Position numbers and translations under genes: made by a program | Part shown: positions 3,988-64,000 of the stretch, piece after piece | How positions within the stretch are numbered: the first letter of the stretch is position 1 | How the letters are laid out: every line of letters begins with the position of its first letter | Notes under the pieces: model-generated | Databases searched by the model: none | The model's input: only the letters and a program-made list of their open reading frames with translations | Told to the model about the DNA's origin: nothing | NCBI GenBank assembly: GCA_900769545.1 | Contig: CAAGGZ010000098.1 | Span: 3,941-67,940 of the forward strand | Source: Clostridia bacterium | Lineage (GTDB): Bacteria > Bacillota > Clostridia > Christensenellales > Borkfalkiaceae | Reading direction: 5' to 3' | Length of the DNA stretch: 64,000 bases

Positions 3988-4785
3988 ATGAAAAAAACTA
4001 CAATACAAATGTTGACCACTTGCTTGTTGTGCGGTATGATATTCTCGACTATGAGCTGCGCAGGTATTGACGAGTCTGTATCGAAGGATTCATCTTCAAG
4101 TTTTGAAAGCAGTATATCCGAAAATGAAACTCAATCTTATTTACAATCGGAGGATACGGGAGATTCTTCTAGCATTGAAGAAACAGTTTCTTTTGAGGAA
4201 AGCAGTTTGGAAGAAAGCTCCTCAGAGAATAGTAGTAGTATAGAGGAAAGCAGTTCGGAAGAAAGCTCCTCAGAGAATAGTAGTATAGAGGAAAGCAGTT
4301 CGGAAGAAAGTTCTTCAGAGGATAGCAGTGAGGAAAAAGAACCTATTAGACATTATCCATATCAAATTGGTGATACTGTGGAAGATTTCTCATTGATGTT
4401 ATCGGACGGCAGTATGTTTACATTGTCTGAGGCATTGCAAGACAACAAACTTGTGATTGTTAAATTTTGGGCGACGTGGTGTCAGCCTTGTGTGATGGAA
4501 TGGGGTGCTATGACAGAGGCATTTTACGATTATCAAGATGATGTATTGATACTTTGTATTAGTTTAACCGATTCTGATCAAGAAATTGAGGAGTACAAGA
4601 AGGACAATAATCTTCCTTTTGCTATGGCGAGCGATTCTCTTAAATTAAGCGACGAGTTTGGTGTTGCTGCGATTCCGCATAAATTTGTCATTGACCGTAA
4701 CGGTATTTTGGTTGAGAGTAAGGTGGGTTCGGTGACGGATGCAGCGGAATATGTAAAGTTATTTGAGCGGTATTGCGCAGATTGA
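3988..4785 (+). CDS. Lipoprotein with Ser/Glu-rich linker and TlpA/ResA-like thioredoxin domain
   Basis: The ATG lies 8 nt after aggagg. The signal peptide ends in a Cys (MSCAG), followed by an SSEE-rich linker. C-terminal WATWCQPC is a CxxC thioredoxin-fold motif. Confidence 0.75.
   Translation: MKKTTIQMLTTCLLCGMIFSTMSCAGIDESVSKDSSSSFESSISENETQSYLQSEDTGDSSSIEETVSFEESSLEESSSENSSSIEESSSEESSSENSSIEESSSEESSSEDSSEEKEPIRHYPYQIGDTVEDFSLMLSDGSMFTLSEALQDNKLVIVKFWATWCQPCVMEWGAMTEAFYDYQDDVLILCISLTDSDQEIEEYKKDNNLPFAMASDSLKLSDEFGVAAIPHKFVIDRNGILVESKVGSVTDAAEYVKLFERYCAD
4195..4332 (+). repeat. In-frame tandem repeat (48+45+45 bp) encoding the Ser/Glu linker
   Basis: GAGGAAAGCAGTTYGGAAGAAAGCTCCTCAGAGAATAGTAGT(AGT)ATA appears three times. 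Confidence 0.85.
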
Positions 4786-19921: not shown

Positions 19922-19954
19922 AAATGCAAAATGCAAAGTGCAAAGTGCAAAATG
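19922..19954 (+). repeat. Heptamer array (4 units)
   Basis: TAAATGCAAAATGCAAAGTGCAAAGTGCAAAATG with TGCA at 19925, 19932, 19939 and 19946. Flank TTGGTAAGG. It lies directly after a terminator hairpin. Confidence 0.85.
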
Positions 19955-20052
19955 TTGGTAAGGTTTATATGAAATTAGTGTTCGGAGCAATAGTCGCTCC
20001 TGTTTAAGGGGGACTTTTTTGTATGGAAATGAAGTTTGCTTGCCGTAGAAAC

Positions 20053-24623: not shown

Positions 24624-24646
24624 TAAAACGAAAAGGCTTTTCAACC

Positions 24647-24765
24647 GGAAGTCAAGAAACTCAGTTTCTTGCGGAGTGCAGGGCGGAGCCTTTGCAATAA
24701 CCTCACTAAAAGCAAGCTTTGCTTGCGTTACTACTGCGTAAGCAGTCCATGGGCGAAGCCCAAAA
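24647..24765 (+). repeat. Diverged solo copy of the four-hairpin core (no heptamer arrays)
   Basis: GGAAGTCAAGAAACTCAGTTTCTTG..TGCAGGGCGGAGCCTTTGCA..GCAAGCTTTGCTTGC..ACTGCGTAAGCAGT is colinear with 42550-42655. It lies between the ligA stop and the terminator. Confidence 0.8.
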
Positions 24766-24782
24766 ACTTTCATAAAACAAAA

Positions 24783-24808
24783 ATCGCGGTTAGAGCCGCG
24801 ATTTTTTT
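24783..24808. terminator. Bidirectional intrinsic terminator (ligA / lipoprotein gene)
   Basis: ATCGCGG-TTAGAG-CCGCGAT with an A-run upstream and a T-run downstream. Confidence 0.8.
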
Positions 24809-24859: not shown

Positions 24860-25450
24860 TTACGAATTTCTAACATAAACGACTAAAGTTTTGATAATTC
24901 TTGGATGGTTAAAATAGAATATTACTCCGTCAATATCTAATGTAGTAGGATAGTCTACCCCAAAAGAGAATTCCAATCCGCTTAATATTTTTAAGACGGG
25001 ATAATTATTGTAAAAGCCATAAAACCAAGTTAAATCAATATCTTTAGCTTCAATATCGGGACAAGATGTACCAGGCTGTTCGCGAAGTTCTTTTGCGCGT
25101 GCTTCTTTTATTTCGGCGGCTAATTCATCGCTTAATTTTTCATTAGGGCTACTTTGTATTCCGTTGCGAATGTCGGCAATTTTTTGAAGGTCTTCTTTGC
25201 TGATGAACCCCAGTTTATAAGCTTCTTCCAAAGTATAAAATGTCCCGAGTGTAACAATTTCTTCACTGCTTTCTACTTCACTACTTTCTTCACTGCTTTC
25301 TACTTCACTACTTTCTTCGCTACTTTCCACCGAGCTGTTTACGCTCTCCACGCTACTATCCGAAGTAGCGCCGCCGCAAGCGGAAAAAACAAGGCTGAAA
25401 ACCAATATGGCCGAAAGTAAAAGTGCCTGTAAACGTTTCATTTTTTTCAT
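24860..25450 (-). CDS. Lipoprotein with Ser/Glu-rich linker, unknown C-terminal domain
   Basis: Lipobox LVFSACGG. A 27-bp in-frame tandem repeat encodes SSEESSEVE twice. Confidence 0.65.
   Translation of the reverse strand: MKKMKRLQALLLSAILVFSLVFSACGGATSDSSVESVNSSVESSEESSEVESSEESSEVESSEEIVTLGTFYTLEEAYKLGFISKEDLQKIADIRNGIQSSPNEKLSDELAAEIKEARAKELREQPGTSCPDIEAKDIDLTWFYGFYNNYPVLKILSGLEFSFGVDYPTTLDIDGVIFYFNHPRIIKTLVVYVRNS
25269..25322 (-). repeat. In-frame tandem repeat (2 x 27 bp) encoding SSEESSEVE
   Basis: TTCTTCACTGCTTTCTACTTCACTACT appears twice, perfectly. Confidence 0.85.
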
Positions 25451-31490: not shown

Positions 31491-31526
31491 AAAAAGCAAG
31501 CTTTGCTTGCGACAATGCAACGCAGT
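31491..31526 (+). repeat. Fragment of the four-hairpin core (hairpin 3 plus degenerate hairpin 4)
   Basis: AAAAGCAAGCTTTGCTTGCGACAATGCAACGCAGT compared with 24709-24746. It lies in the def-fmt spacer. Confidence 0.6.
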
Positions 31527-33720: not shown

Positions 33721-33931
33721 AAGGAGTCAAGAGGCATTGCCTCTTGCGTGGTATGGAGCAGAGCTCCACAAGAAAAGCCTTACGAAAGCAAAACGTAGTT
33801 TTGCGCTATTATCACAAAGTGATGAACGCCTAAGGCGTAAAAGGCGCAACCTAAGGTTGCTTAAAAAAAAGGGGGGACTATTTAGGGGCGTTGCCCCAAA
33901 CCCCACGAGGAACTGAGTTCCTCGACCTTCC
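33721..33931 (+). repeat. ~210-bp multi-hairpin element with GTCAAG...CTCGAC inverted termini
   Basis: About 8 short hairpins with 3-nt loops. The first ~75 nt align with 63368-63440. The 3' terminal hairpin CGAGGAACTGAGTTCCTCGAC mirrors the 5' terminal module of the core family. Confidence 0.8.
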
Positions 33932-40484: not shown

Positions 40485-42491
40485 ATGAAATTATCAACGC
40501 TCCGCTCTATCGGGGAAAAGAGAGAGAAGGATTTTAATAAACTGGGTATATACGAGGTGGAAGATCTCGTCCGTTTTTATCCGCGCGCGTACTTGGATTT
40601 AACGGAGCGCGCTTCTCTGCGCACGGCTTATCATAACGATATGGTGCTTATCGCTTGCGAAGTCAACCGCGTCGTCCCCGTGAATTACGGGAATAAGCGC
40701 AAAATGGTGAAGGCGTACTGCTCGCAGGACGGATTTCCGTTTACCGTCGTATGGTTTAATCAGCCGTACGTAGCGCAGAAATTGCAGCCTGGGGAATATC
40801 TTTTTTACGGCAGAGTTCAAAACAAATTCGGACAAGTCTCCCTTGTTAATCCGACGTTTGAGGAGTTGGATAAAAATTACCGCTTAAAAGGGATTATCCC
40901 CGTGTATTCGCTTAAAGGCAATTTGAGTCAAAAAGTAGTGCGTTCGGCGGTGAAAGAAGCGTTGCAAAAAGTGGATTTAACGGGCGTTATTCCTTGGCAG
41001 ATTATTAAAAAATACGATTTACCGCCTTTAGAAAAAGCCTATTTTGACGTGCACAATCCCTCTGATGAGCGGACGAAAGATTTGGCGTCGGAGCGCATTG
41101 CGCTCGAGGAATATTTCACGCTGATTTCCGCTTTTAAAATTATAAAAGGCGGCAAAGAGGACGCAAGGGTACACCATTACAGCGTTTCCGCAGAAGAAGT
41201 GAAGAATTTTTCCACCCGTTTTGGATTTGAATTTACAAACGGTCAAAAACAGGCGGTCAATGATATTTTTACAGGTTTATATGCGCCGACGCGCATGAAC
41301 CGCTTAATTCAAGGCGACGTAGGTAGCGGTAAAACCGCCGTTGCGTTGTGCGGTATGTTTATGGCGGTAAGGAGCGGTTTTACAGCGGCGTATCTGTCAC
41401 CGACAGAAGTGCTCGCAGCGCAGAACTATGCGCTTTTGAAACGCTATTTTCCCGAATACGAGGTAGGGTATCTCGCAGGGGGAATGACGGCGAAAGAAAA
41501 ACGGGAGCTGAAAGCTCGACTTAAAAACGGCGAAATCGATATTCTTTGCGGTACGCACGCAATTTTCCAAGGCGACGTGGAGATTCCCAAACTTTCCTTT
41601 ATTGTCTGCGACGAACAGCACCGTTTCGGCGTAGCGCAAAGAAACGCGCTTGCGGAAAAGGGCGCGGGCGTGGATATGCTGGTTATGAGCGCAACGCCCA
41701 TACCTCGTACCTTGTCGTTGATTTTTTACGGGGATTTGGACGTTACCACCATTACGGATAAACCCAAAGCCCGTCAGGAAATCTCGACGAGTATTATTCC
41801 CGAATCCAAGTACGACGATATGCTCGAATATGTCAAAAAGGAAACGGCGGCAGGCAAACAGGCGTACTTTGTTTGCGCCAAGATAGACGATGACGAAGAG
41901 GGCTCTATTATGAGCGTGACGGAGCTCCACGAGGAATTAAAAACACGCCTTCCGAGCGTTAAATTCGGGCTTTTACACGGCAGAATGAAGGACAAGGAAA
42001 AGGCGGAAATTATGGCGGCGTTCAAGGCGAAAGAATACGATTGCTTGGTTTCGACGACGGTTATTGAGGTCGGCGTGGACGTACCGAACGCAACCATTAT
42101 GATTATTTATAATGCGGAGCGTTTCGGGCTCTCGCAGTTGCATCAGCTCCGAGGCAGAGTCGGCAGAGGCGCAGAAAAGAGTTATTGCTTCCTGCTTATG
42201 GGGGCGGACGGCGATACGGCAAGAGAGCGTCTTTTGACGCTGAAAAACAACACCGACGGCTTTAAAATAGCGGAAAAGGATTTGGAAATGCGAGGCAGTG
42301 GCGACTTTTTCGGTACTCGTCAATCGGGCAAAGTATTGACGGATATTAAAAATCTCCGTTATCCCACGCAGGTTATTTTTGCGGCGAAAAAGCTCTCTGA
42401 CGACGCCTTTGAAGGTCGGTTTGACGATGAAAAATTACGTTTTGCGGCGTTGAAGAAGTATAATAGTTTGAAAGACGTTGTAATGAATTAA
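40485..42491 (+). CDS. recG: ATP-dependent DNA helicase RecG
   Basis: GDVGSGKT, CDEQHRFG, SATPIPRT and QLRGRVGRG motifs. Confidence 0.92.
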   Translation: MKLSTLRSIGEKREKDFNKLGIYEVEDLVRFYPRAYLDLTERASLRTAYHNDMVLIACEVNRVVPVNYGNKRKMVKAYCSQDGFPFTVVWFNQPYVAQKLQPGEYLFYGRVQNKFGQVSLVNPTFEELDKNYRLKGIIPVYSLKGNLSQKVVRSAVKEALQKVDLTGVIPWQIIKKYDLPPLEKAYFDVHNPSDERTKDLASERIALEEYFTLISAFKIIKGGKEDARVHHYSVSAEEVKNFSTRFGFEFTNGQKQAVNDIFTGLYAPTRMNRLIQGDVGSGKTAVALCGMFMAVRSGFTAAYLSPTEVLAAQNYALLKRYFPEYEVGYLAGGMTAKEKRELKARLKNGEIDILCGTHAIFQGDVEIPKLSFIVCDEQHRFGVAQRNALAEKGAGVDMLVMSATPIPRTLSLIFYGDLDVTTITDKPKARQEISTSIIPESKYDDMLEYVKKETAAGKQAYFVCAKIDDDEEGSIMSVTELHEELKTRLPSVKFGLLHGRMKDKEKAEIMAAFKAKEYDCLVSTTVIEVGVDVPNATIMIIYNAERFGLSQLHQLRGRVGRGAEKSYCFLLMGADGDTARERLLTLKNNTDGFKIAEKDLEMRGSGDFFGTRQSGKVLTDIKNLRYPTQVIFAAKKLSDDAFEGRFDDEKLRFAALKKYNSLKDVVMN

Positions 42492-42504
42492 AAGCCGCAT
42501 TTCT

Positions 42505-42690
42505 AAATGCAAAATGCATAATGCAAAGTGCAAAATGAAGGTAGGATGGGAAGTCAAGGAACTGAGTTCCTTGTCAGGGTGCAGGGGCGGAAGCCCTTGC
42601 AGGAGTAGCCCAAAATAAGCAAGCTATGCTTGCGTCACTACTGCGTAGCAGTCGATAAAAATGCAAAATGCATAATGCAAAATGCAAAAT
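42505..42690 (+). repeat. Composite element: heptamer array, four-hairpin core, heptamer array
   Basis: Arrays at 42505-42537 and 42658-42690 (4 units each) flank the core at 42538-42657. The core is near-identical to 61075-61197. Confidence 0.9.
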
Positions 42691-42720
42691 TATGGAAAAA
42701 TTAAAAAGGCTTTATTGCTT

Positions 42721-42753
42721 GGCTCCCTTGTGTAAAGGGAGCTGACTTTTTTT
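42721..42753 (+). terminator. Intrinsic terminator downstream of recG and the composite element
   Basis: GGCTCCCTT-GTGTA-AAGGGAGC followed by TGACTTTTTTT. Confidence 0.7.
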
Positions 42754-42825
42754 GTAGAAAAAAGGCTGAGGGATTGTTAAAAAGCTGACTCGCCGCGGCT
42801 TTTGTCTTATATTTTTTTAAAACTA

Positions 42826-42854
42826 TTGACAATGCAGACAAAAAGTGATAAAAT
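42826..42854 (+). promoter_or_regulatory. Sigma-70-type promoter, ~215 nt upstream of the LRR gene start
   Basis: TTGACA, 17 nt, TAAAAT preceded by TGA. Confidence 0.55.
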
Positions 42855-43070
42855 AAAACTGCGACATAATTTCATAAAAATCTCAAAAAGGCATATACTT
42901 CTTTGGTGGAAGTGTATCTTTTTCGCGTTACAAAAAACCTTTTTGGGATTGGTAATAGAAATTGTGTCGCAACAAAAGCGGAAAGGACATTTTTACAGGT
43001 GTCGTTCCCTTTTGTGGATCGACACTTTTCTTATTTAAAAGGAAAAATAAAACCAAGGAGGCATTATAAA

Positions 43071-44993
43071 GTGAAAAGTGTAAAAAGATTTTTAATTGGC
43101 GCATTGGCAATGCTAGTCTCTTGCGCAGGTTTTGCGGCTTGTGGTGGTGCAGGTGAAAGCTCTTTATCGAGTTCGGAGAAAGCAAGCTCGGTAGAAGAAG
43201 TTTCATCAGAAGAAAGTAATTCGACGGTGGATATTTCTTCGGAAGAGCATAGTAGTTCGGAAGAGCATAGTAGTTCGGAAGAAGAGAGCAGTTCGGTAGA
43301 GGAAAGTTCTTCTAAAGAAGACAGTTCGGTGGAAGAACATATACATAACTATGAATTGACGGGTAAAACGTCTGTTACTTGTACGGAAGATGGACAGATG
43401 GTGTATACTTGTAAATGTGGGGATAGTTATACAGAGACGGTTGCTGCTTGGGGACACGATTACATAAACGATGAATGTATCTACTGTGGTAAAAAACCAA
43501 GTGAAGGCTTGGAGTATGAATTAAGTGGAATGACGTATTCAGTAGTGGGCATCGGCTCGTGTACGGATACCGATTTGGTAATTCCTTTTACTCATAATAA
43601 TTTACCTGTGACGAGCATTGGTGATGGTGCGTTCGCCTATTGTGACAGTTTGACGAGTGTGGTAATTTCCGACAGTGTGACGAGTATTGGCGACGAGGCA
43701 TTCGTTTATTGTGAGAATTTAACGAGCTTGAAAATCGGCAACAGTGTGACATGTATTGGTGATGGTGCGTTCTATCAATGTAGCAGTTTGACGAGCGTTG
43801 TAATTCCCGATAGCGTGACGAGTATTGAGTGGGGGGCGTTTGCTCACTGTGGAGAATTGACAAGCGTGGAGATTCCCAACGGTGTGACAAGTATTGATGG
43901 TGCTACGTTCGCTGATTGTGACAGTTTGACGAGTGTGATGATTCCTAACAGTGTGACAAGTATTGATAATGAGGCGTTCGCCTATTGTGACAGTTTGACG
44001 AGTGTGGTGATTCCCAACAGTGTGACAAGTATTGATGATAGTGCGTTCGCCTATTGTGACAGTTTGACGAAGATAGAAGTAGACGAAAATAACAGCGTAT
44101 ACAAATCTATAGACGGCGATTTGTATACAAAAGACGGCGCAACGTTGATACAATATGCCATAGGGAAAACAGCAACGTCCTTTACAATTCCCGACAGTGT
44201 AACAAGTATTGGTGTTTGGGCGTTCTTTGGTTGTAGTTTGACGAGCATAGAAGTATCGGAAAATAACAGTGCATATAAATCTATAGAAGGCAATTTGTAT
44301 ACAAAAGATGGCGCAACGTTGATACAATATGCCATAGGGAAAACAGCAACGTCTTTTACAACCCCTGACAGCGTGACGAGTATTGAGTGGTTTGCGTTCG
44401 CCTATTGTGATAGTTTGACGAGTGTGGTAATTGGCGACAGTGTGGTAAGTATTGGTTATTATGCGTTCGCCTATTGTGATAGTTTGACGAGTGTGGTAAT
44501 TGGCGACAGTGTGATAAGTATCGGAGCTTGTGCGTTCTATTATTGCGACAGTTTGACGGGCATAGAAATATCGGAAAATAACAGCGTATATAAATCGATA
44601 GACGGCAATGTATATACAAAAGACGGCGCAACGTTGATACAATACGCCATAGGGAAAACGGCAAGCTTGTTCATTATTCCTGACAGTGTGACGAGTATTG
44701 ATTATGAGGCGTTTTCTTCTTGTAGCAGTTTGACGAGCGTGGTGATTAGCGACAGTGTGACAAGTATTGCTGATAGTGCGTTCGCTGACTGTAAAGAATT
44801 GACAAGCGTGGTGATGTCCGACAGTGTGACGAGTATTGGATATGCGGTGTTTTTTTCTTGTAGCAGTTTGACAAGTATTACCTTTAGCGGTACAGTCGAA
44901 CAATGGAAGGCGATTGAGAAAGATGATGATTGGAATATTGGCGTTCCTGCGACAGAAGTGGTTTGCAAGGACGGAAAAGTTGCGCTTAAATAA
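43071..44993 (+). CDS. BspA-type leucine-rich-repeat (LRR_5-like) lipoprotein with N-terminal His/Cys modules
   Basis: GTG start 9 nt after aaggagg. Lipobox LVSCAGFAAC, then an SSEE linker and HIHNY..CTEDG..CKCG and GHDY..CIYCG modules. About 20 repeats of (I/V)PxSVTSIGxxAFxxCxSLTS follow. Confidence 0.8.
   Translation: MKSVKRFLIGALAMLVSCAGFAACGGAGESSLSSSEKASSVEEVSSEESNSTVDISSEEHSSSEEHSSSEEESSSVEESSSKEDSSVEEHIHNYELTGKTSVTCTEDGQMVYTCKCGDSYTETVAAWGHDYINDECIYCGKKPSEGLEYELSGMTYSVVGIGSCTDTDLVIPFTHNNLPVTSIGDGAFAYCDSLTSVVISDSVTSIGDEAFVYCENLTSLKIGNSVTCIGDGAFYQCSSLTSVVIPDSVTSIEWGAFAHCGELTSVEIPNGVTSIDGATFADCDSLTSVMIPNSVTSIDNEAFAYCDSLTSVVIPNSVTSIDDSAFAYCDSLTKIEVDENNSVYKSIDGDLYTKDGATLIQYAIGKTATSFTIPDSVTSIGVWAFFGCSLTSIEVSENNSAYKSIEGNLYTKDGATLIQYAIGKTATSFTTPDSVTSIEWFAFAYCDSLTSVVIGDSVVSIGYYAFAYCDSLTSVVIGDSVISIGACAFYYCDSLTGIEISENNSVYKSIDGNVYTKDGATLIQYAIGKTASLFIIPDSVTSIDYEAFSSCSSLTSVVISDSVTSIADSAFADCKELTSVVMSDSVTSIGYAVFFSCSSLTSITFSGTVEQWKAIEKDDDWNIGVPATEVVCKDGKVALK
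43239..43310 (+). repeat. In-frame 18-bp tandem repeat (4 units, 2 perfect) encoding SEEHSS-type linker
   Basis: TCGGAAGAGCATAGTAGT appears twice, followed by two diverged units. Confidence 0.8.
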
Positions 44994-45022
44994 ATGCAAA
45001 ATGCGAAGTGCGAAATTGTGGA
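44991..45022 (+). repeat. Heptamer array (3 units)
   Basis: TAAATGCAAAATGCGAAGTGCGAAATTGTGG. Its first TAA is the stop codon of the LRR gene. Confidence 0.8.
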
Positions 45023-45079
45023 ATAATACGCGATTAAAAGCTCGTTCGTGAAAATTTCAAGAAAATTTTCTCAAGGCTA

Positions 45080-55716: not shown

Positions 55717-55745
55717 TTGACAAACGGAAAATATGGGTGTATAAT
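55717..55745 (+). promoter_or_regulatory. Sigma-70-type promoter of argG
   Basis: TTGACA, 17 nt, TATAAT with TG upstream. Confidence 0.65.
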
Positions 55746-55746
55746 G

Positions 55747-55783
55747 ATTGCATAAATCAAAAATTATTCAATATTTATGCAAA
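55747..55783 (+). promoter_or_regulatory. ARG-box-like operator candidates
   Basis: ATTGCATAAATCAAAAAT and ATTCAATATTTATGCAAA each match one half well against the WNTGMATAWWWATKCANW-type consensus recalled from ArgR/AhrC literature. Confidence 0.35.
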
Positions 55784-55811
55784 AATTCATCTTGAAAGGA
55801 GACATAGAATT

Positions 55812-57035
55812 ATGGACAAGAAAGACATCAAAAAAGTAGTGCTCGCATACTCGGGCGGTTTGGATACCTCGATTATCATTCCCTGGCTCAAAGAAAATTA
55901 CAACAACTGCGAAGTTATCGCAGTCAGCGGTAACGTAGGTCAGGCGGACGAATTGGACGGTTTGGAAGAAAAGGCGCTCAAAACAGGCGCTTCCAAGCTC
56001 TACGTAGAAGATTTGACGGACGAATTTGTAGACGAATACGTTATCCCCACGATGCAGGCAGGGGCTAAGTATGAAGAATATTTGTTGGGTACTTCCTTTG
56101 CGCGTCCCGTAATCGCAAAGCGTATTGTCGAGATTGCGAAAAAGGAAGGGGCAGACGCTATCTGCCACGGCTGTACGGGTAAGGGTAATGACCAGGTACG
56201 TTTTGAGTTGACGATTAAAGCCTTTGCGCCCGATATGAAAATCATCGCGCCTTGGCGTGAATGGTCGATTAAGTCCCGCGAAGAGGAAATCGACTATGCA
56301 GAAGCGCACAACGTGCCTTTGAAAATTAACCGTGAAACCAACTATTCTAAGGATAAGAACCTTTGGCATTTGAGCCACGAGGGTTTGGATTTGGAGGACG
56401 CTGGTAACGAGCCGCAGTATGAAAAGGAAGGATTCCTTGAAATGGGTGTTTCGCCGTTGCAGGCTCCCGATAAGCCCACGTATGTGGAAATCGATTTTGA
56501 AAAGGGTAAACCCGTTGCGCTCGACGGCAAAAAGATGAGTGCGAAAGAGATTATTTTGGCGCTCAACAAGGTAGGAGGCGAAAACGGTATCGGGCTTTTG
56601 GACATCGTAGAAAACCGTTTGGTGGGTATGAAGTGTCGCGGCGTATACGAAACGCCGGGCGGCGAAATTTTGTATAAAGCGCACAGCTATTTGGAAACGC
56701 TCTGTTTGGATAAATACACAGCGCATAAGAAGCAGGAGCTTTCGGTATGTTTTGCAGAGCTTGTCTACAACGGACAGTGGTTTACCCCTCTTCGTGAAGC
56801 GTTGACGGCGTTTGTAGACAAGACGCAGGAAAACGTAACGGGTAAAGTACGTTTGAAGCTGTACAAAGGCAACATTATCAAAGCCGGCGCGTGGAGCGAC
56901 TATTCCTTGTACTCGGAAGAAATTGCAACGTTCGGTGAAGACCACGTTTACAATCAAGCTGACGCAACGGGCTTTATTGAATTGTTCGGATTGCCTATTA
57001 AGGTGCAGGCGCAAGTCAACCAGAAAAACAAGTAA
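55812..57035 (+). CDS. argG: Argininosuccinate synthase
   Basis: [12 protein letters not shown]; start after aaggag. Confidence 0.92.
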
Positions 57036-57134
57036 AACGACGTATGTACGTCGCATTTCTACGTTGCTGTTCGGTTACATACTAACGGTATGCGCCCTCA
57101 CAGCGCCTTGAACTGCTCGTATCTCCGCCGTTTT
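57036..57134. repeat. Intergenic sequence related to 22497-22679
   Basis: CGACGTATGTACGTCG hairpin and GCGCCTTGAACTGCTCGTATCTC. It is followed by a heptamer array. Confidence 0.45.
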
Positions 57135-57165
57135 AAGTGCGAAATGCGAAGTGCGAAATTGTGGC
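57135..57165 (+). repeat. Heptamer array (3 units)
   Basis: AAGTGCGAAATGCGAAGTGCGAAATTGTGG. Confidence 0.8.
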
Positions 57166-57263
57166 AGAGTTTTTTTAAATAAAGCTACAACGTCGGCAAA
57201 GTTGCCAATTTGCGATTGACAAAGTCAATCAATTCACATATCAGTCATTGTACGGAGAAAAAT

Positions 57264-57299
57264 TTGCCTATCGCAGCCGCGATAGGCAAGCGTGTTTTT
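57264..57299 (+). terminator. Terminator-like hairpin 6 nt upstream of the argH start
   Basis: 11-bp stem TTGCCTATCGC-AGCC-GCGATAGGCAA followed by GCGTGTTTTT. Confidence 0.6.
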
Positions 57300-57304
57300 A
57301 GATT

Positions 57305-58684
57305 ATGGAAAAAATGTGGGCAGGGCGGTTTCAAAAAGCCCTGGATAAAAAAGCAGACGATTTTAATTCTTCCCTGCGTTTTGATTTCAGAATGTACGCG
57401 CAGGATATAAAAGGCTCGATGGCGCACGCGGCAATGCTCGCAAAACAAGGCATTGTTCCCGAAAAGGACGTCGATTTGATATTGGACGGGTTAGAAGGTA
57501 TCCTTGCCGATTTAGAGGCAGGGAAGCTCACCTTTGACGACAACGCCGAAGATATTCACATGTATGTCGAGGCGGAGCTCACCAAACGTATCGGGGAAGC
57601 AGGCAAAAAGCTGCACACCGCGCGTAGCCGTAACGACCAAGTAGCGGTGGATATTCGTTTATATCTTCGAGATAAAGCTGCGGAAGTGGTGGAGCTTGTC
57701 AAAACCCTTCTTTCCGTTGTGGTAGATAAAGCGGAAGAAACCGCAGACGTGATTGCGCCCGGGTACACGCATTTACAACGCGCGCAACCCATTTCGTTTG
57801 GGCATCAGTTGATGGCGTATGCGATGATGCTGCTCCGTGATATGGGCAGAATCAAGGACGCCGTAAAGCGTATGAACGTTTCGCCTTTGGGAAGCTGCGC
57901 TTTGGCTGGAACGACCTATCCCACGGACAGAGCGTTCGTGGCGGAAAAGCTCGGGTTTGACGGCGTTATGCAAAATAGTATCGATGGGGTTTCCGACCGC
58001 GATTTTTGCGTGGAGCTGATGAGCGCGTTTGCAATCCTTATGATGCACCTGTCGAGATTTTCCGAGGAAATTATTTTGTGGTCGAGTTGGGAGTTCAAGT
58101 TTATCGAGCTTGACGATTCCTACACTACGGGCTCGTCCATTATGCCGCAAAAGAAAAACCCTGACATGGCGGAGCTTGTCCGCGGTAAAACGGGTAGAGT
58201 ATACGGAAATTTAATGGCGCTTTTGACGACGCTCAAAGGCTTGCCGCTCGCATACAATAAGGACATGCAAGAGGACAAGGAGGCGATTTTCGATTCGTTA
58301 GACACGGTGATTATGTGTTTGGAAGTGTTTGCGCCTATGGTTGCGACGATGAAAGTGAATGCGGACATTACGTATAAAGCGGCGCAGAAAGGCTTTATCA
58401 ACGCCACCGATTTGGCGGATTATCTGACGAAAAAGGGCGTGCCGTTCCGTGTTGCGTATAAGGCGGTGGGGCAAATTGTGGCTGAGTGTATCGAAAAGGG
58501 CTGTGTTTTGGACGAATATCCCTTGGCGGAATACAAAAAACACAGCGACGTTTTTGAAGAAGATTTATATGAAGAAATCTCTCTTGAAACTTGCGTAAAC
58601 AAGCGTTTAAGCGAGGGCGGAGCTTCTCCTTCGTCTGTGAGAAAACAGGTGGAATGGGTGAGGAAGGAAATGCAAAATGCATAA
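57305..58684 (+). CDS. argH: Argininosuccinate lyase
   Basis: MWAGRF and GSSIMPQKKNPD signature. The start could be the ATG at 57314. The last 5 codons and the stop lie inside a heptamer array. Confidence 0.9.
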   Translation: MEKMWAGRFQKALDKKADDFNSSLRFDFRMYAQDIKGSMAHAAMLAKQGIVPEKDVDLILDGLEGILADLEAGKLTFDDNAEDIHMYVEAELTKRIGEAGKKLHTARSRNDQVAVDIRLYLRDKAAEVVELVKTLLSVVVDKAEETADVIAPGYTHLQRAQPISFGHQLMAYAMMLLRDMGRIKDAVKRMNVSPLGSCALAGTTYPTDRAFVAEKLGFDGVMQNSIDGVSDRDFCVELMSAFAILMMHLSRFSEEIILWSSWEFKFIELDDSYTTGSSIMPQKKNPDMAELVRGKTGRVYGNLMALLTTLKGLPLAYNKDMQEDKEAIFDSLDTVIMCLEVFAPMVATMKVNADITYKAAQKGFINATDLADYLTKKGVPFRVAYKAVGQIVAECIEKGCVLDEYPLAEYKKHSDVFEEDLYEEISLETCVNKRLSEGGASPSSVRKQVEWVRKEMQNA

Positions 58685-58705
58685 TGCAAAATGCAAAATT
58701 GAGGA
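58668..58705 (+). repeat. Heptamer array (4 units) overlapping the argH 3' end
   Basis: AAATGCAAAATGCATAATGCAAAATGCAAAATTGAGG. It encodes ..MQNA and the TAA stop of argH. Confidence 0.85.
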
Positions 58706-58741
58706 AGAATTAGAGAGCGTTTTAAACAACGTGGAGAAAAT

Positions 58742-59668
58742 ATGAAAAAAGTATTTATTGACGGCAGCGCAGGGACAACGGGCTTGCGGATATACGAAAG
58801 ACTTTCCAAAAGAGAGGACGTTGCATTACTGCTCCTGTCAGAGGAAAAAAGAAAAGATATTTCGGCGAGAAAGGAAATGCTCAATCGCGCGGACGTGGCG
58901 TTTTTATGTCTGCCCGACGATGCGGCAAGGGAAGCGGTAACGCTCGTCGAAAACCCCGAAACGGTGATAATCGACGCCTCCACGGCGCATAGAACGTTGT
59001 CCGATTGGGCGTATGGCTTTCCGGAGCTTTCCAAAGCCCATGAAGGACGGATATTGAGCTCTAAAAGAATAGCAAACCCCGGCTGTCATGCCAGCGGCTT
59101 TATTGCGCTTACTTATCCGCTTGTGGAAGCAGGGCTGTTGAAGAAAGACGCTTTGCTTACCTGTCATTCGATTACGGGTTATTCGGGCGGCGGTAAAAAA
59201 ATGATTACCGAATACGAAACGGAGAGCCGTAATTTGTTATTGGGCGCGCCCCGTCAGTACGGGCTTTCGCAACAGCATAAGCATTTAAAAGAAATGCAAG
59301 CCATCGTTGGCTTGGAAGTTGCGCCTATGTTTTCGCCTATCGTGGCAGATTTTTACAGCGGTATGACAGTGACGGTGCCTTTGTTTAAACAGCAGATAAA
59401 CGGCTCGATAGAGGACGTAAAAGCGGTGCTCAAGCAAAAATACAACGGCGAGATTGTCAGTTATGTCGAAAGTGTGGACGAGGACGGATTTATTTCCGGG
59501 CTTGCGTTATCGGGGAAGGACAGTATGAAAATTACCGTATGCGGCAACGCAGAGCGAATTTTACTCATAGCGGCGTATGACAACCTTGGCAAAGGCGCAA
59601 GCGGCGCGGCGGTGGAATGTATGAATATGGTCATCGGCGCGGATACAAAAGCAGGGCTGATTTTGTAA
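58742..59668 (+). CDS. argC: N-acetyl-gamma-glutamyl-phosphate reductase (short form)
   Basis: IANPGCHASG active-site Cys. 308 aa. Confidence 0.85.
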   Translation: MKKVFIDGSAGTTGLRIYERLSKREDVALLLLSEEKRKDISARKEMLNRADVAFLCLPDDAAREAVTLVENPETVIIDASTAHRTLSDWAYGFPELSKAHEGRILSSKRIANPGCHASGFIALTYPLVEAGLLKKDALLTCHSITGYSGGGKKMITEYETESRNLLLGAPRQYGLSQQHKHLKEMQAIVGLEVAPMFSPIVADFYSGMTVTVPLFKQQINGSIEDVKAVLKQKYNGEIVSYVESVDEDGFISGLALSGKDSMKITVCGNAERILLIAAYDNLGKGASGAAVECMNMVIGADTKAGLIL

Positions 59669-59716
59669 ATGCAAAATGCAAAATGCAAAATGCAAAATGC
59701 GAAATGAAGGTAGGAT
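59666..59716 (+). repeat. Heptamer array (5 units)
   Basis: TAAATGCAAAATGCAAAATGCAAAATGCAAAATGCGAAATGAAGGTAGGAT. Its first TAA is the argC stop. The flank is identical to 42536-42547. Confidence 0.85.
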
Positions 59717-59802
59717 TTTTAAAATTCAGCCATAACGGCGATGAAATCAACAATGTGCGAAACCAAAGGTTTCTATAATTCACATACAAAAAAGGAAAAA
59801 AT

Positions 59803-61017
59803 ATGTTAAAACAAATTCAGGGCGGCGTTTGCGCCGCAAAAGGCTTTACCGCAAACGGCGTACACTGCGGTATTCGTAAAAATAAAACCAAGCGCGATTT
59901 GGCGCTTATTTACAGCGAAGTTCCTGCAAGCGCGGCGGCGGTGTATACCAAAAACCTCGTGAAAGGCGCTCCGCTTACCGTTACCAAAAACAATATTGCG
60001 GACGGCAAAGCGCAGGCGATTATTTGCAACAGCGGCAACGCCAACACCTGCAATGCCAACGGTATCGAGATTGCGGAAACGACTTGCGCGATTCTTGGCA
60101 AGGCGCTCCGTTTAAAAGCCACCGACGTGGTTGTTGCTTCTACGGGCGTCATTGGTCAGCCTTTGGATATTACTCCCATTCAAAACGGAATCCCTGCCCT
60201 CGTAGAGGGCTTGGGCGCGCACAGTAATCTTGCGTGCGAGGGGATTATGACGACGGACATGAAACCCAAAGAAATCGCCTTTGAGTTTACGGTAGACGGC
60301 AAAGTTTGCCATATCGGCGGTATCGCGAAAGGGAGCGGTATGATTCATCCCAATATGGCGACGATGCTCGTGTTTGTTACCACCGATTGCGCGGTTGCGC
60401 CTCAGGCTCTTCAAAAGGCGTTGTCCAAGGACGTAGAGGACTCGTTTAATATGGTCAGCATTGACGGCGACACGTCCACCAACGATATGGTGACGGTGCT
60501 TGCAAACGGTTTGGCTGGGAATAAGGAGCTCACTGAAACAGACGAAGAATTTGCGATTTTCACGGCGGCGTTGAACGCCGTAACGACCTACCTTTGCAGA
60601 TTGATTGCAGGGGACGGCGAGGGCGCGACAAAGCTCCTTGAGTGTAAAGTCGAGGGGGGCAGGGATGCGTTGACGGCGAAAATTGTCGCAAAATCGGTTA
60701 TTTGTTCCTCGCTTTTTAAAGCGGCTATGTTCGGCGCGGACGCAAACTGGGGACGCGTACTTTGCGCAATCGGGTATTCGGGCGCAGACGTGGACGTGAA
60801 TAAGGTCGGCGTGAGCTTCCGCTCTGCAAAAGGAAGTATCACGGTTTGTGAAAACGGAGCAGGCATACCTTTCTCGGAAGAAAAAGCCAAAGAGATATTA
60901 TTGGAAAGCGAAATCGAAATTTTAATCACGCTCGGTGACGGCGACGGAACAGCGACCGCTTGGGGTTGTGATTTGACGTATGATTATGTAAAGATTAACG
61001 GCGACTATCGAACTTAA
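59803..61017 (+). CDS. argJ: Bifunctional ornithine acetyltransferase / N-acetylglutamate synthase
   Basis: GMIHPNMATMLVF contains the autoprocessing site. 404 aa. Confidence 0.9.
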   Translation: MLKQIQGGVCAAKGFTANGVHCGIRKNKTKRDLALIYSEVPASAAAVYTKNLVKGAPLTVTKNNIADGKAQAIICNSGNANTCNANGIEIAETTCAILGKALRLKATDVVVASTGVIGQPLDITPIQNGIPALVEGLGAHSNLACEGIMTTDMKPKEIAFEFTVDGKVCHIGGIAKGSGMIHPNMATMLVFVTTDCAVAPQALQKALSKDVEDSFNMVSIDGDTSTNDMVTVLANGLAGNKELTETDEEFAIFTAALNAVTTYLCRLIAGDGEGATKLLECKVEGGRDALTAKIVAKSVICSSLFKAAMFGADANWGRVLCAIGYSGADVDVNKVGVSFRSAKGSITVCENGAGIPFSEEKAKEILLESEIEILITLGDGDGTATAWGCDLTYDYVKINGDYRT

Positions 61018-61042
61018 TACGACGGCTTGTCGTATTAAGTTT
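61013..61042 (+). terminator. Hairpin overlapping the argJ stop
   Basis: CTTAATACGAC-GGCTT-GTCGTATTAAG followed by only TTT. A heptamer array follows. Confidence 0.45.
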
Positions 61043-61043
61043 G

Positions 61044-61228
61044 AAATGCAAAATGCAAAGTGCAAAATGCAAAATTGTGGAAGGATAGGAAGTCAAGGAA
61101 CTCAGTTCCTTGTCAGGGTGCAGGGGCGGAAGCCCTTGCAATAGTAGCCCTTCCAAAAGCAAGCTATGCTTGCGCTACTACTGCGCAGCAGCGATAAAAA
61201 TGCAAAGTGCAAAATGCAAAATGCGAAA
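61044..61228 (+). repeat. Composite element: heptamer array, four-hairpin core, heptamer array
   Basis: Arrays at 61044-61074 and 61198-61228. Core hairpins are AAGGAACTCAGTTCCTT, TGCAGGGGCGGAAGCCCTTGCA, GCAAGCTATGCTTGC and CTGCGCAGCAG. Confidence 0.9.
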
Positions 61229-61328
61229 TATACAGGTTGATTTTGCAGTAAATCAAAGTCTGGATGCAACGGCACGTTGCCTGTGGAACGCTGGCAACAA
61301 TTCACGAAAATTACTTATGGAGTTTATT

Positions 61329-62198
61329 ATGGAAAAACCTACCACGGCGCAACGCGCGCAAATATTAACCCAAGCGTTACCCTATATTCAAAAATATTAT
61401 AATAAAATCATCGTCGTAAAGTATGGCGGTAATGCGATGCTTAATGACGAGCTCAAGGAAGCCGTGATGGGCGATATTGTATTGCTCTCGCTTATCGGTA
61501 TCAAAGTTGTGTTGGTACACGGCGGCGGCCCTGAAATCACGGAAATGCTTGGGAAAGTGGGTAAAAAGTCGGAGTTTGTCAACGGGCTTCGCGTTACCGA
61601 CCAAGAAACGGTGGATATTGTGCAGATGGTATTGGCGGGCAAAGTGAATAAAAACCTCGTCAACCACTTGCAGAGAAAGGGCGGTAAAGCTATCGGGCTT
61701 TGCGGTATGGACGGCCACATGATCCGCGCGAAAAAGGTGGACGAACGTTTGGGCTTTGTCGGAGAGATTACCGACGTCAACGTAGCGCCTGTTGTCGACG
61801 TGCTCGAAAAGGGGTATATTCCTGTCATTTCAACGGTTGGCTATGATTTGGACGGCAATACGTACAATATCAATGCGGACACCGTTGCGGCGCGTATTGC
61901 AGGGGAATTGAAAGCGGAATGTCTGATTTCTATGACGGATATTGTGGGTTTGCTCCGTGATAAGGACGACCCGACGACGCTCATTCCCAAGGTATACGTT
62001 TCCGACGCGCCCAAGCTTATGAGAGACGGCGTTATCAGCGGCGGTATGATTCCCAAAATTAACTGCTGTATCGAGGCGATTCGCCGTGGGGTGCATAAGG
62101 TCTTTATTTTGGACGGCAGAGTGCCGCACGCCATCTTGATTGAAATTCTCACTGACGAGGGCTTGGGAACAATGTTTGTTTCGGGGAGCGGTATTTAA
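61329..62198 (+). CDS. argB: Acetylglutamate kinase
   Basis: IIVVKYGGNAM and VLVHGGGP. The longer ORF from 61110 runs through a repeat element and is rejected. Confidence 0.88.
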   Translation: MEKPTTAQRAQILTQALPYIQKYYNKIIVVKYGGNAMLNDELKEAVMGDIVLLSLIGIKVVLVHGGGPEITEMLGKVGKKSEFVNGLRVTDQETVDIVQMVLAGKVNKNLVNHLQRKGGKAIGLCGMDGHMIRAKKVDERLGFVGEITDVNVAPVVDVLEKGYIPVISTVGYDLDGNTYNINADTVAARIAGELKAECLISMTDIVGLLRDKDDPTTLIPKVYVSDAPKLMRDGVISGGMIPKINCCIEAIRRGVHKVFILDGRVPHAILIEILTDEGLGTMFVSGSGI

Positions 62199-63358
62199 TG
62201 AACATCATTGAATTGGATAAACAGTACGTTGCGAACACCTACGCGCGTTTTCCTTTGCAGCTTGTAAAAGGAAAGGGCTCCTTGGTGTACGATGAAAACG
62301 GAAAAGAATATATTGACTTGGGCACAGGTATTGCAGTCAACGCATTCGGCGTGGGTGATACCGAATGGAAAGCGGCGGTAATTGCGCAGCTTGACAAAAT
62401 TCAACACACCTCCAACCTGTATTATAGCGAGCCTTGCGCTCTGCTTGCGAAAGAGCTCTGCGTTCGAACTGGTATGAAAAAGGTGTTTTTCTCCAACTCG
62501 GGGGCAGAAGCCAACGAGTGCGCCATCAAGGCGGCGAGAAAGTATGGGGAGATCAAAAAAGGCAAGGAATATTGCACGGTAATCACCCTAAAAAACAGCT
62601 TCCACGGGCGCACGATTACAACCCTTTCAGCGACGGGACAGGACGTATTTCACGAGCATTTCACGCCTATGACGGAGGGGTTTGTATATGCAACGGCGAA
62701 TGATTTTGAGGAATTGAAAACACTTGCGATAAACCACAAATGTTGCGGCGTGATGATAGAGCTTGTGCAAGGCGAGGGCGGCGTGATGGCGCTCGATAAG
62801 GAATATGTACAGGCAGTAGCGGCGTTTTGTCAAGAACAAGATATGCTGTTGATTGCAGACGAGGTACAAACGGGCAACGGCAGAACGGGCAGTTTGTATG
62901 CGTTTATGGAATACGGCATTATTCCCGACGTGGTTACGACCGCGAAAGGCTTAGGCGGCGGTTTGCCGATTGGCGCAACGATGCTCGGGGAAAGAGCGGA
63001 AACGTTGTTCACGGCGGGGTTGAACGGCTCCACGTTCGGCGGAAATCCCGTGGCGTGCGCAGGCGCGTTGAGTATATTAGAGCGCATAGACGAAAAACTG
63101 CTTGCAGAAGTCAAAGAAAAGAGCGCGTACATTTTCAATGAATTACAGAACGCAGAGGGCGTAAAGAGCGTTTCGGGTATGGGTTTTATGATCGGTATTG
63201 AAACGGAAAAAGACGCCTCTAAGGTTATCGCGGATTGTATGGAAAAGGGAGTTTTGGTGATAAAAGCGAAGAACAAAGTACGTTTGTTGCCTGCGCTCAA
63301 TATCCCGTGGGAACAGTTAAAAAAGGCGATTACAACGCTGAAAACGGCGTTGAAGTAA
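62198..63358 (+). CDS. argD: Acetylornithine aminotransferase
   Basis: SNSGAEANE, DEVQTG and TTAKGLGGG (PLP lysine). Its ATG overlaps the argB stop. Confidence 0.88.
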   Translation: MNIIELDKQYVANTYARFPLQLVKGKGSLVYDENGKEYIDLGTGIAVNAFGVGDTEWKAAVIAQLDKIQHTSNLYYSEPCALLAKELCVRTGMKKVFFSNSGAEANECAIKAARKYGEIKKGKEYCTVITLKNSFHGRTITTLSATGQDVFHEHFTPMTEGFVYATANDFEELKTLAINHKCCGVMIELVQGEGGVMALDKEYVQAVAAFCQEQDMLLIADEVQTGNGRTGSLYAFMEYGIIPDVVTTAKGLGGGLPIGATMLGERAETLFTAGLNGSTFGGNPVACAGALSILERIDEKLLAEVKEKSAYIFNELQNAEGVKSVSGMGFMIGIETEKDASKVIADCMEKGVLVIKAKNKVRLLPALNIPWEQLKKAITTLKTALK

Positions 63359-63367
63359 AAAAGGGAA

Positions 63368-63580
63368 GTAAGAAGTCAAGAAACTTAGTTTCTTGCGAGG
63401 TGTGGAGCAGAGCTCCACGGGAAGAAGCCCAAAGAGAAGCAAAGCTTTGCTTTGCGCTAAAAGACGCCTTTGGCGTAGATGGCAGAGCCATGTAGCGCAA
63501 AACTGTGTTTTGCTTTTAAAGGGGGACATTGCAAAGGCCCCGCCTCTGCACACCGCAAGGGACAACGTCCCTTGACCCTA
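63368..63580 (+). repeat. ~210-bp multi-hairpin element with GTCAAG...CTTGAC inverted termini
   Basis: GTCAAGAAACTTAGTTTCTTG at the 5' end and CAAGGGACAACGTCCCTTGAC at the 3' end. The internal hairpin TGGAGCAGAGCTCCA is shared with 33753-33769. Confidence 0.8.
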
Positions 63581-63612
63581 AGTATTAGAAAACACATCAA
63601 AAGGAGATAGAA

Positions 63613-64000
63613 ATGAAACATTTATTAAAGTTGATGGATTTATCCAAGAAGGATATTACCGAAATTTTGAATTTGGCAGACCAGTTGAAATTCGAAAAGA
63701 AAAACGGTATCGAGCACCACTTGCTCAAAGGTAAAACGCTCGGTATGATTTTTGAGAAATCGTCCACCCGTACCCGTGTGTCGTTTGAGGTAGGTATGTA
63801 TGATTTGGGCGGTACGGCTCTGTTCTTGAGCTCCCGTGATTTGCAAATCGGCAGAGGGGAGCCCGTGCAGGACACCGCGCGCGTACTGTCGAGATATTTG
63901 GACGGTATCATGATTCGTACCTTTGCGCAAAAGGAAGTAGAGGATTTGGCGGAATACGGCTCTATTCCCATTATCAACGGTTTGACGGATTATTGTCATC
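63613..64000 (+). CDS. argF: Ornithine carbamoyltransferase (3' end outside window)
   Basis: FEKSSTRTRVSFE carbamoyl-phosphate motif. ATG after aaggag. Sits in the arg cluster. Confidence 0.8.
   Translation, partial: MKHLLKLMDLSKKDITEILNLADQLKFEKKNGIEHHLLKGKTLGMIFEKSSTRTRVSFEVGMYDLGGTALFLSSRDLQIGRGEPVQDTARVLSRYLDGIMIRTFAQKEVEDLAEYGSIPIINGLTDYCH

Follow-up and report, generated by a model that had tools for sequence, protein, structure and literature searches.

Modular hairpin repeats with heptamer leader arrays and stems kept by compensatory changes in spacers of 'Candidatus Scatosoma'-like gut Clostridia

Cyanobacterial STRR sequences are tandem G/C-rich heptanucleotide arrays dispersed in intergenic regions. 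Repeats in which base-paired modules dominate are represented by BOX of Streptococcus pneumoniae, a modular boxA-boxBn-boxC repeat whose terminal inverted repeats pair mutually and which makes target-site duplications (Croucher et al., 2011, PMC3049150). A REP sequence is a single imperfect palindrome, 20-40 nt long and headed by GT(A/G)G, and REP elements have their own transposases, the RAYTs (Nunvar et al., 2010, PMC2817692); the IS200/IS605-derived PATEs and other single-strand HUH substrates are characterized by strand-specific hairpins and asymmetric ends (PMC6006769). STRR sequences are mentioned in PMC4748335 and PMC2670836.

The DNA analyzed here, referred to as the window, is a stretch of 64 kb from a Clostridia bacterium. 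An earlier note on its sequence had described two near-identical composites, one after recG (42505-42690) and one between argJ and argB (61044-61228), each built of a heptamer array, a linker, a core of four hairpins and a second array. Both composites were recovered with these parts at these coordinates; they share one layout and are identical at 164/187 positions (87.7%), or 96/108 for the cores alone, and all four hairpins could be located in the recG copy. That composite starts directly 3' of the recG stop codon (42489-42491) and runs through five AAATGCA-type heptamers, a linker, a core of ~105 nt and four heptamers with a tail. The linkers of the two composites are TGAAGGTAGGATGG and TTGTGGAAGGATAG, and the junction from core to second array, CGATAA, is identical in both, which suggests that the composite was copied whole. 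The features of the two composites, with units as delimited by a covariance model of the family, are as follows.

42505-42549, + strand: recG composite, leader module 1, (AAATGCA)x5 (array 42505-42539) and linker AAATGAAGGTAGGATGG
42550-42657, + strand: recG composite, core unit with hairpins 1-4 (79.3 bits, E = 5.5e-24; a copy used in model building)
42548-42644, + strand: the covariance-model unit at the recG site
42555-42573: recG core hairpin 1, CAAGGAAC-TGA-GTTCCTTG
42580-42601: recG core hairpin 2, TGCAGGGGC-GGAA-GCCCTTGCA, with one G:T wobble and a GGAA loop
42619-42633: recG core hairpin 3, GCAAGC-TAT-GCTTGC
42640-42652: recG core hairpin 4, ACTGC-GTA-GCAGT
42659-42702, + strand: recG composite, leader module 2, (AAATGCA)x4 (array 42659-42686) and tail AAATTATGGAAAAATT
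42719-42755, + strand: intrinsic terminator-like hairpin and T-run, 3' of the recG composite
61044-61088, + strand: argJ-argB composite, leader module 1, (AAATGCA)x4 (array 61044-61071) and AAATTGTGGAAGGATAG
61089-61196, + strand: argJ-argB composite, core unit (85.8 bits with the covariance model)
61087-61184, + strand: the covariance-model unit at the argJ-argB site
61198-61240, + strand: argJ-argB composite, leader module 2 (array 61198-61225)

What had been called a composite thus joins modules of two different kinds: leader arrays and a core. When the covariance model was run over the 64-kb window without filters it returned seven full units, and the window also holds ten heptamer arrays of 2-6 heptamers each, six of them without a core. 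Since all ten arrays end in the same AAAT-TGTGGAAGGAT-like tail, array and tail together form a module in its own right. The copies outside the two composites are listed here.

24646-24766, + strand: array-free solo unit in the ligA 3' UTR (model match 24646-24737, 74.6 bits, E = 2e-22; a model-building sequence)
24779-24806: terminator-like site 3' of the ligA copy
31491-31526, + strand: fragment between def and fmt, hairpin 3 and a remnant (E = 0.012; sequence left out of model building)
33721-33931: tail-to-tail unit pair between rsmB and rlmN (33721-33813 on +, 33835-33931 on -; covariance model)
63370-63581: tail-to-tail unit pair between argD and argF (63370-63464 on +, 63488-63581 on -; covariance model)
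2480-2524, - strand: solo leader module in reverse orientation
19922-19965, + strand: solo leader module upstream of a UvrD/PcrA-like helicase gene
44992-45030, + strand: solo leader module directly 3' of an LRR gene, at the right edge of a ~2.5-kb lineage-specific block
57135-57170, + strand: solo leader module between argG and argH, with variant AAGTGCG/AAATGCG heptamers, adjoining an unrelated repeat
58668-58712, + strand: solo leader module between argH and argC; the last codons and stop of argH come from the array
59667-59722, + strand: solo leader module between argC and argJ, AAATGCA x6 and TGAAGGTAGGAT; the TAA stop of argC comes from the array

The copy list of the earlier note thus stands for the composites, for the diverged solo core 3' of ligA (given there as 24647-24765) and for the fragment between def and fmt, the latter match being independent of model building, but it had overlooked the two tail-to-tail pairs and the six solo arrays. 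Its statement that the copies at recG and ligA come after a stop codon and before a terminator agrees with the terminator-like sites 3' of both, and the recG composite lies within the recG 3' UTR because a terminator-like hairpin follows it. Pfam identifies the neighbors as LigA, Def, Fmt, RsmB, RlmN, RecG, ArgJ, ArgB, ArgD, ArgG, ArgH, ArgC, ArgF, HisIE, a BspA-type LRR protein and the UvrD/PcrA helicase.

Modules of the family sit at 5/6 junctions of the argG-argH-argC-argJ-argB-argD-argF cluster (55737-63999) as an array, a composite or an inverted pair; the clusters of relatives have fewer, partly at other junctions. At 58668-58699, where the array forms the 3' end of argH, relatives have an overlapping ATGA junction instead, and at 59667-59670 the argC-argJ array reaches into coding sequence. 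The array at 19922 is followed (19965-20010) by a GGAGC...GCTCC hairpin and the motif AAGGGGGAC, then a T-run. The GGGGGAC motif of this stretch is also found in each inverted pair, in the antisense half (33870, 63525), so the stretch may be what is left of an antisense unit and act as a terminator.

Beyond the window, an exact-pattern scan with the hairpin-1 frame, using one genome per species, returned at least 110 stretches; among the matches listed, all were in MAGs labeled Candidatus Scatosoma sp., Clostridia bacterium or Clostridiales bacterium, which stem from gut samples, those of deer and sheep among them. The covariance model gave 176 matches in 770 kb of 'Candidatus Scatosoma'/Clostridia gut MAG DNA. 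A unit measures 95-150 nt and comprises 3 to 6 distinct hairpins. Its head is an invariant hairpin-1 frame, GAAGTCAAG-stem-loop-stem-CTTG, downstream of which comes a variable series of short hairpins drawn from a shared repertoire, with C:G-closed stems of 5-9 bp and ~69% G+C. Units occur solo, in tail-to-tail pairs (also at MAG loci L035 and L110) and in direct tandem arrays (four at L099, three at L060). In the window's lineage the leader module flanks the core at one end or at both, and it occurs by itself as well. The module 5' of hairpin 1 varies by genome: AAATGCA arrays in the genome of the window, one to four heptamers and TGGCGGAAAGATTA directly 5' of hairpin 1 in one related MAG, and unrelated modules in other MAGs, heptamer arrays being absent from most relatives' units. 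In one MAG (A/G)TTA almost always precedes hairpin 1 and could belong to the element. An independent assembly contig of the window's genome ends inside the argJ-argB composite, which fits the multi-copy nature of the repeat.

Among the described systems the best analogue is BOX, which is likewise modular, resides in a Firmicute and is presumed to affect co-transcribed genes. Both are small (<200 bp to a few hundred bp), modular, highly base-paired intergenic repeats with variable module number in a narrow clade, and by analogy the present units would act through secondary structure on the genes they are co-transcribed with. The fixed hairpin 1 followed by variable, interchangeable hairpins resembles A-Bn-C as an analogy of architecture only. 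However, there is no evident sequence relationship, and the units are strings of independent mini-hairpins with a tandem-repeat heptamer leader. Unlike both BOX and MITEs, single units have dissimilar 5' and 3' ends, terminal inverted repeats being mimicked only by the inverted pairs, and no target-site duplication was found; unlike MITEs, the units are not AT-rich, with a G+C of 0.49-0.54 against 0.455 for the window. With REP/BIME the family shares G+C-rich palindromes that lie outside genes in many copies and are preserved through complementary mutations, and which occur as singles, inverted doublets and mosaic clusters with other motifs, often at gene 3' ends. It departs from REP in the 95-150-nt unit with 3 to 6 different hairpins and in the GAAGTCAAG head in place of GT(A/G)G. 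REP/BIME clusters regularly alternate in orientation; here tail-to-tail pairs and direct tandem arrays both occur. The dispersed intergenic 7-nt tandem arrays of one lineage make STRR an analogue of which the family is not a member, since the heptamer here is AAATGCA and the arrays end in a conserved tail and are coupled to a family of hairpin repeats.

That the stems are kept by compensatory changes had been proposed from the ligA copy, where a G-to-A change in hairpin 1 is matched by a C-to-T change so that pairing is kept. We verified this change and found that the pattern holds over 148 distinct copies. Among 79 non-redundant units, hairpin 1 has double changes in 5/8 pairs and none is broken. 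A covariation test of hairpin 1 and inner hairpin 2 used the 148 model-aligned copies, in an alignment itself fitted to the covariance model: 98.7% of cells pair, and double changes occur in 10/12 pairs. Double-change cells numbered 117 versus 30 +/- 3.5 in shuffles, and 0/500 shuffles reached 117, controls which overstate independence because the copies share descent. When the 3' partner was slid, pairing fell to 34-54%. Because the varying stem length of hairpin 3 misaligned the MAFFT columns, anchored parsing was used for it, yielding 63 variants of hairpin 2 and 43 of hairpin 3. All hairpin-3 variants have a constant GCAA...TTGC frame around inner stems (AGC, AAC, CC, ATC, GGC and others) that are always complementary. 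A GGG...CCC helix enclosing hairpin 2 is present in most copies and aligns poorly; being nearly invariant, it is uninformative on covariation. Maintenance of the stems by compensatory change is shown by these data.

The individual hairpins are short, and this is the one point in favor of a likeness due to chance, or of palindromes that arose fortuitously in neutral spacer. In the window, however, the hairpin-1 frame has 4 matches (0.00 expected), the hairpin-3 frame 5 (0.16 expected) and the heptamer 15-mer 25 (0.47 expected), far over shuffles. Together with hundreds of copies in several genomes and the covariation, these counts refute that explanation, in accord with the view of the earlier note that the element is not neutral spacer.

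The hairpins are not symmetrical between strands. In 223 unique hairpins downstream of hairpin 1, GNNA tetraloops outnumber TNNC 40 to 3 (p = 3e-9) and GNA triloops outnumber TNC 46 to 10 (p = 1e-6). The strand-specific wobble first noticed in hairpin 2 extends to hairpins 2 and 3, where a structure-anchored parse counted G:T 51 versus A:C 14 (p = 4e-6). A first count of G:T 59 versus A:C 77, from a crude hairpin parse, was discarded since forced stem extension had made spurious A:C pairs. Folding-energy z-scores were alike on both strands and gave no strand discrimination. The asymmetry of loops and wobbles indicates that selection has acted on the folding of one strand, the one that reads from hairpin 1 onward. 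Of the loops, 74% are triloops; C:G is the closing pair in 200/223 hairpins, and no UNCG loop occurs among the 223. C-GNA-G mini-hairpins are famously stable as DNA, and a set of C-GNA-G triloops without UNCG fits stable mini-hairpins of DNA better than it fits structured RNAs. The predominance of triloops, the C:G closing pairs and the lack of UNCG therefore argue against a purely RNA reading. The single-stranded form is established; RNA is more likely its medium than ssDNA, which may also have a role.

Genomic context bears on this choice. Units lie outside ORFs in 157/177 cases, and by spacer class 86 are in co-directional, 24 in convergent and 10 in divergent spacers, against a baseline of 408/85/101, so that divergent spacers are depleted (Fisher p = 0.018). 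Unpaired units in co-directional spacers are sense in 45 cases and antisense in 12 (p = 1e-5). Orientation is not obligatory: antisense units make up 21%, and there are inverted pairs. When the flanking genes occupy the C-rich strand, the unit is oriented with them in 8/8 cases, which favors transcription over replication as the orienting force, in a test that is soft because the coding strand also affects the skew of a locus. Hairpin 3 with the A-rich leader is terminator-like in reverse complement in 23/70 units and in the sense direction in 1/70, and counter-selection alone could explain part of the sense bias. Judged from sequence, an RNA-level function appears favored by that bias, with indirect support also from the recG and ligA copies, which lie 3' of a stop codon and 5' of a terminator-like site. 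No protein family was found to recur next to the units.

Could the repeats instead be ssDNA elements of the REP/RAYT or IS200/IS605-PATE type, with hairpins recognized by an HUH-Y1 transposase and any RNA effects incidental? We regard this as possible but doubtful. It would accommodate the strand-specific hairpins, the 74% of triloops with their GNA/GNNA loops, 200/223 C:G closing pairs and zero UNCG, as well as the asymmetric hairpin-bearing ends, the (A/G)TTA before hairpin 1 in one MAG and the inverted pairs, which look like REP doublets or REPINs. Complementary mutations also shape REP palindromes (PMC2817692), and PATEs likewise have hairpins specific to one strand and asymmetric ends and show no obvious target-site duplication. 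PATEs insert 3' of a fixed tetra- or pentanucleotide. However, the GT(A/G)G head is missing and the G:T excess is also what RNA tolerates. In REP systems a rayt (HUH-Y1) gene is flanked by two inverted copies. No RAYT-like ORF was found in ~1.3 Mb: a phmmer search of 7,385 ORFs with approximate IS608, IS200 and E. coli RAYT queries returned one ordinary IS200 only, and in the fetched DNA there was, unlike for PATEs, no cognate tnpA with matching ends. In the 8/8 cases where gene strand and G-rich strand disagree, a small discordant set, orientation tracks the genes and not the G-rich strand. The single IS200-family tnpA (L056, 6268-6772), from a Ca. Scatosoma MAG, follows a unit at a distance of two genes; the ends and flanking hairpins of this IS200 are unrelated to unit hairpins.

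The best explanation is probably that these are non-autonomous, modular interspersed repeats of the REP/BIME/BOX kind, residing in 'Candidatus Scatosoma'-like spacers and co-transcribed with operons. Under this explanation the units would have been spread, now or formerly, by a trans-acting activity, modules would be swapped between copies by recombination or gene conversion, and the heptamer leader may grow by replication slippage. Operon transcripts would carry the units, and the sense-strand hairpins might act like REP/BOX structures, as barriers to 3'-exonucleases or as processing sites that modulate the stability of neighboring cistrons. Antisense copies may have been partly purged because about one third would read as hairpin and U-tract, i.e., as terminators.

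More specific, and in our view rather unlikely, are two non-exclusive readings: a mobile modular RNA-structure cassette, and a substrate of REP/RAYT-like single-strand DNA transposition. On the RNA side, strings of GNRA/GNA-capped mini-hairpins would be selected in sense within operons, as at 5/6 arg-cluster junctions, and would tune the mRNA stability of individual cistrons; an RNA-binding factor would use the heptamer leader as a platform that is adjustable and prone to slippage. On the DNA side, this would be a Clostridia system with multi-hairpin rather than single-palindrome ends, in which gene cassettes, for instance the LRR surface-protein gene bracketed by leader arrays, would recombine at those arrays.

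Orthologous sites are filled in some relatives and empty in others. The recG 3' regions of ~40 relatives (65-91% RecG identity) held no unit or array on inspection, and 80 recG-anchored metagenome loci (382 kb, 51-91% identity) likewise contained zero units or arrays; in the closest relatives the hisIE promoter comes directly 3' of recG. In a strain-level comparison, L111 and L192 are the same genome, one ENA contig, and are not independent, and an exact ArgB record was not found. Other spacers are patchy, as follows, with locus numbers for the relatives.

def-fmt spacer: fragment in the window; empty in L069 and L087, filled in L062
rsmB-rlmN spacer: inverted pair in the window; filled in L069, empty in L087
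argH-argC spacer: leader array only in the window; empty in L027 and L025
argC-argJ spacer: leader array only in the window; empty in L027
argJ-argB spacer: composite in the window; a unit without arrays in L027 and L008
argB-argD spacer: empty in the window; filled in L008
argD-argF spacer: inverted pair in the window; empty in L008

Such a pattern is as expected for a mobile repeat. The three argJ-argB units keep their module order while their stems differ by paired changes, and the hairpin-2 module is swapped in L008, which suggests exchange between copies. The earlier note had proposed looking for target-site duplications in relatives; comparison of filled with empty junctions gave none that was consistent, and none can be defined because the 3' ends are modular. 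One candidate, TGAGGAAG on both sides of the 58668 array, equals the leader tail consensus and did not generalize. The suggestion of that note that the element is a hairpin repeat of REP/BIME/BOX type, a non-autonomous mobile element, or both is upheld as to kind by the covariation and the patchy orthologous sites.

At recG, positions 42495-45030 form a ~2.5-kb block (composite, terminator, promoter, LRR gene and solo array) which the closest recG relatives lack; directly after the 44992 array the native spacer between recG and hisIE continues. The block encodes a BspA-type LRR surface protein with 69-bp repeats and has leader modules in direct orientation at both edges; the leader arrays might be recombination joints for this LRR cassette. 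The LRR gene itself (42903-44993) encodes 696 aa in the window versus 582 aa in L111 (3640-5388), with 84% identity over the match. This gap in length, in an otherwise same genome, is probably due to assembly repeat collapse or to real variation in repeat number.

Leader modules that bracket a lineage-specific block, and tandem 7-bp arrays with a conserved tail, are also what protein-binding DNA sites might look like, with IHF/gyrase BIME-like sites, iteron-like arrays and hairpins that are cruciform or nucleoid-organizing; BIMEs are known protein-binding sites (PMC2817692). We consider this improbable here: the asymmetry of loops and wobbles points to a single-stranded form and not to duplex recognition, most relatives' units are without arrays, and no candidate binding protein was found.

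A structured RNA dedicated to a particular ligand or target, whether an ncRNA or a cis-regulatory RNA such as a riboswitch, a leader or an sRNA, is disfavored still more strongly. Covariation-supported stems, GNRA-type loops, the sense bias and a module at 5/6 arg-cluster junctions would suit it. However, the neighbors are unrelated housekeeping genes, module content and order are variable, orthologous presence is patchy, and no conserved promoter, terminator or multi-helix junction is present. Rfam also offers no counterpart: a scan of the whole window at gathering thresholds gave 0 matches and permissive scans of two element regions gave sub-threshold noise only. Searches with blastn against plasmid and phage collections found no match. 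A tRNA or tmRNA origin was considered and dropped, as ARAGORN predicts no gene in the window.

The repeats are a previously uncatalogued family that belongs to no named family; they add to a known class of elements and do not constitute a new kind of system. Operon expression, genome plasticity and the quality of metagenome assemblies are all shaped by small interspersed repeats, which in uncultured gut Clostridia are almost unstudied. With strong covariation, strand asymmetry and lineage-patchy expansion, the family offers a clean case for weighing RNA-level against ssDNA-level selection. With a family model these MAGs could be annotated better and contig breaks explained, and the heptamer arrays are candidate markers for strain typing.

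The window contains other repeats as well. A second, unrelated intergenic repeat of ~100 nt (aacgacgtatgtacgtcgcatttc...gccttgaactgctcgtatctccgccgtttt) lies beside the argG-argH array at 57036-57134 and occurs also in MAG loci L062 (2300-2780, in about three tandem copies), L057 and L102. In-frame tandem repeats unrelated to the element are found inside ORFs at 4195-4329 (45-bp period), 25258-25327 (27-bp period) and 43238-43301 (18-bp period).
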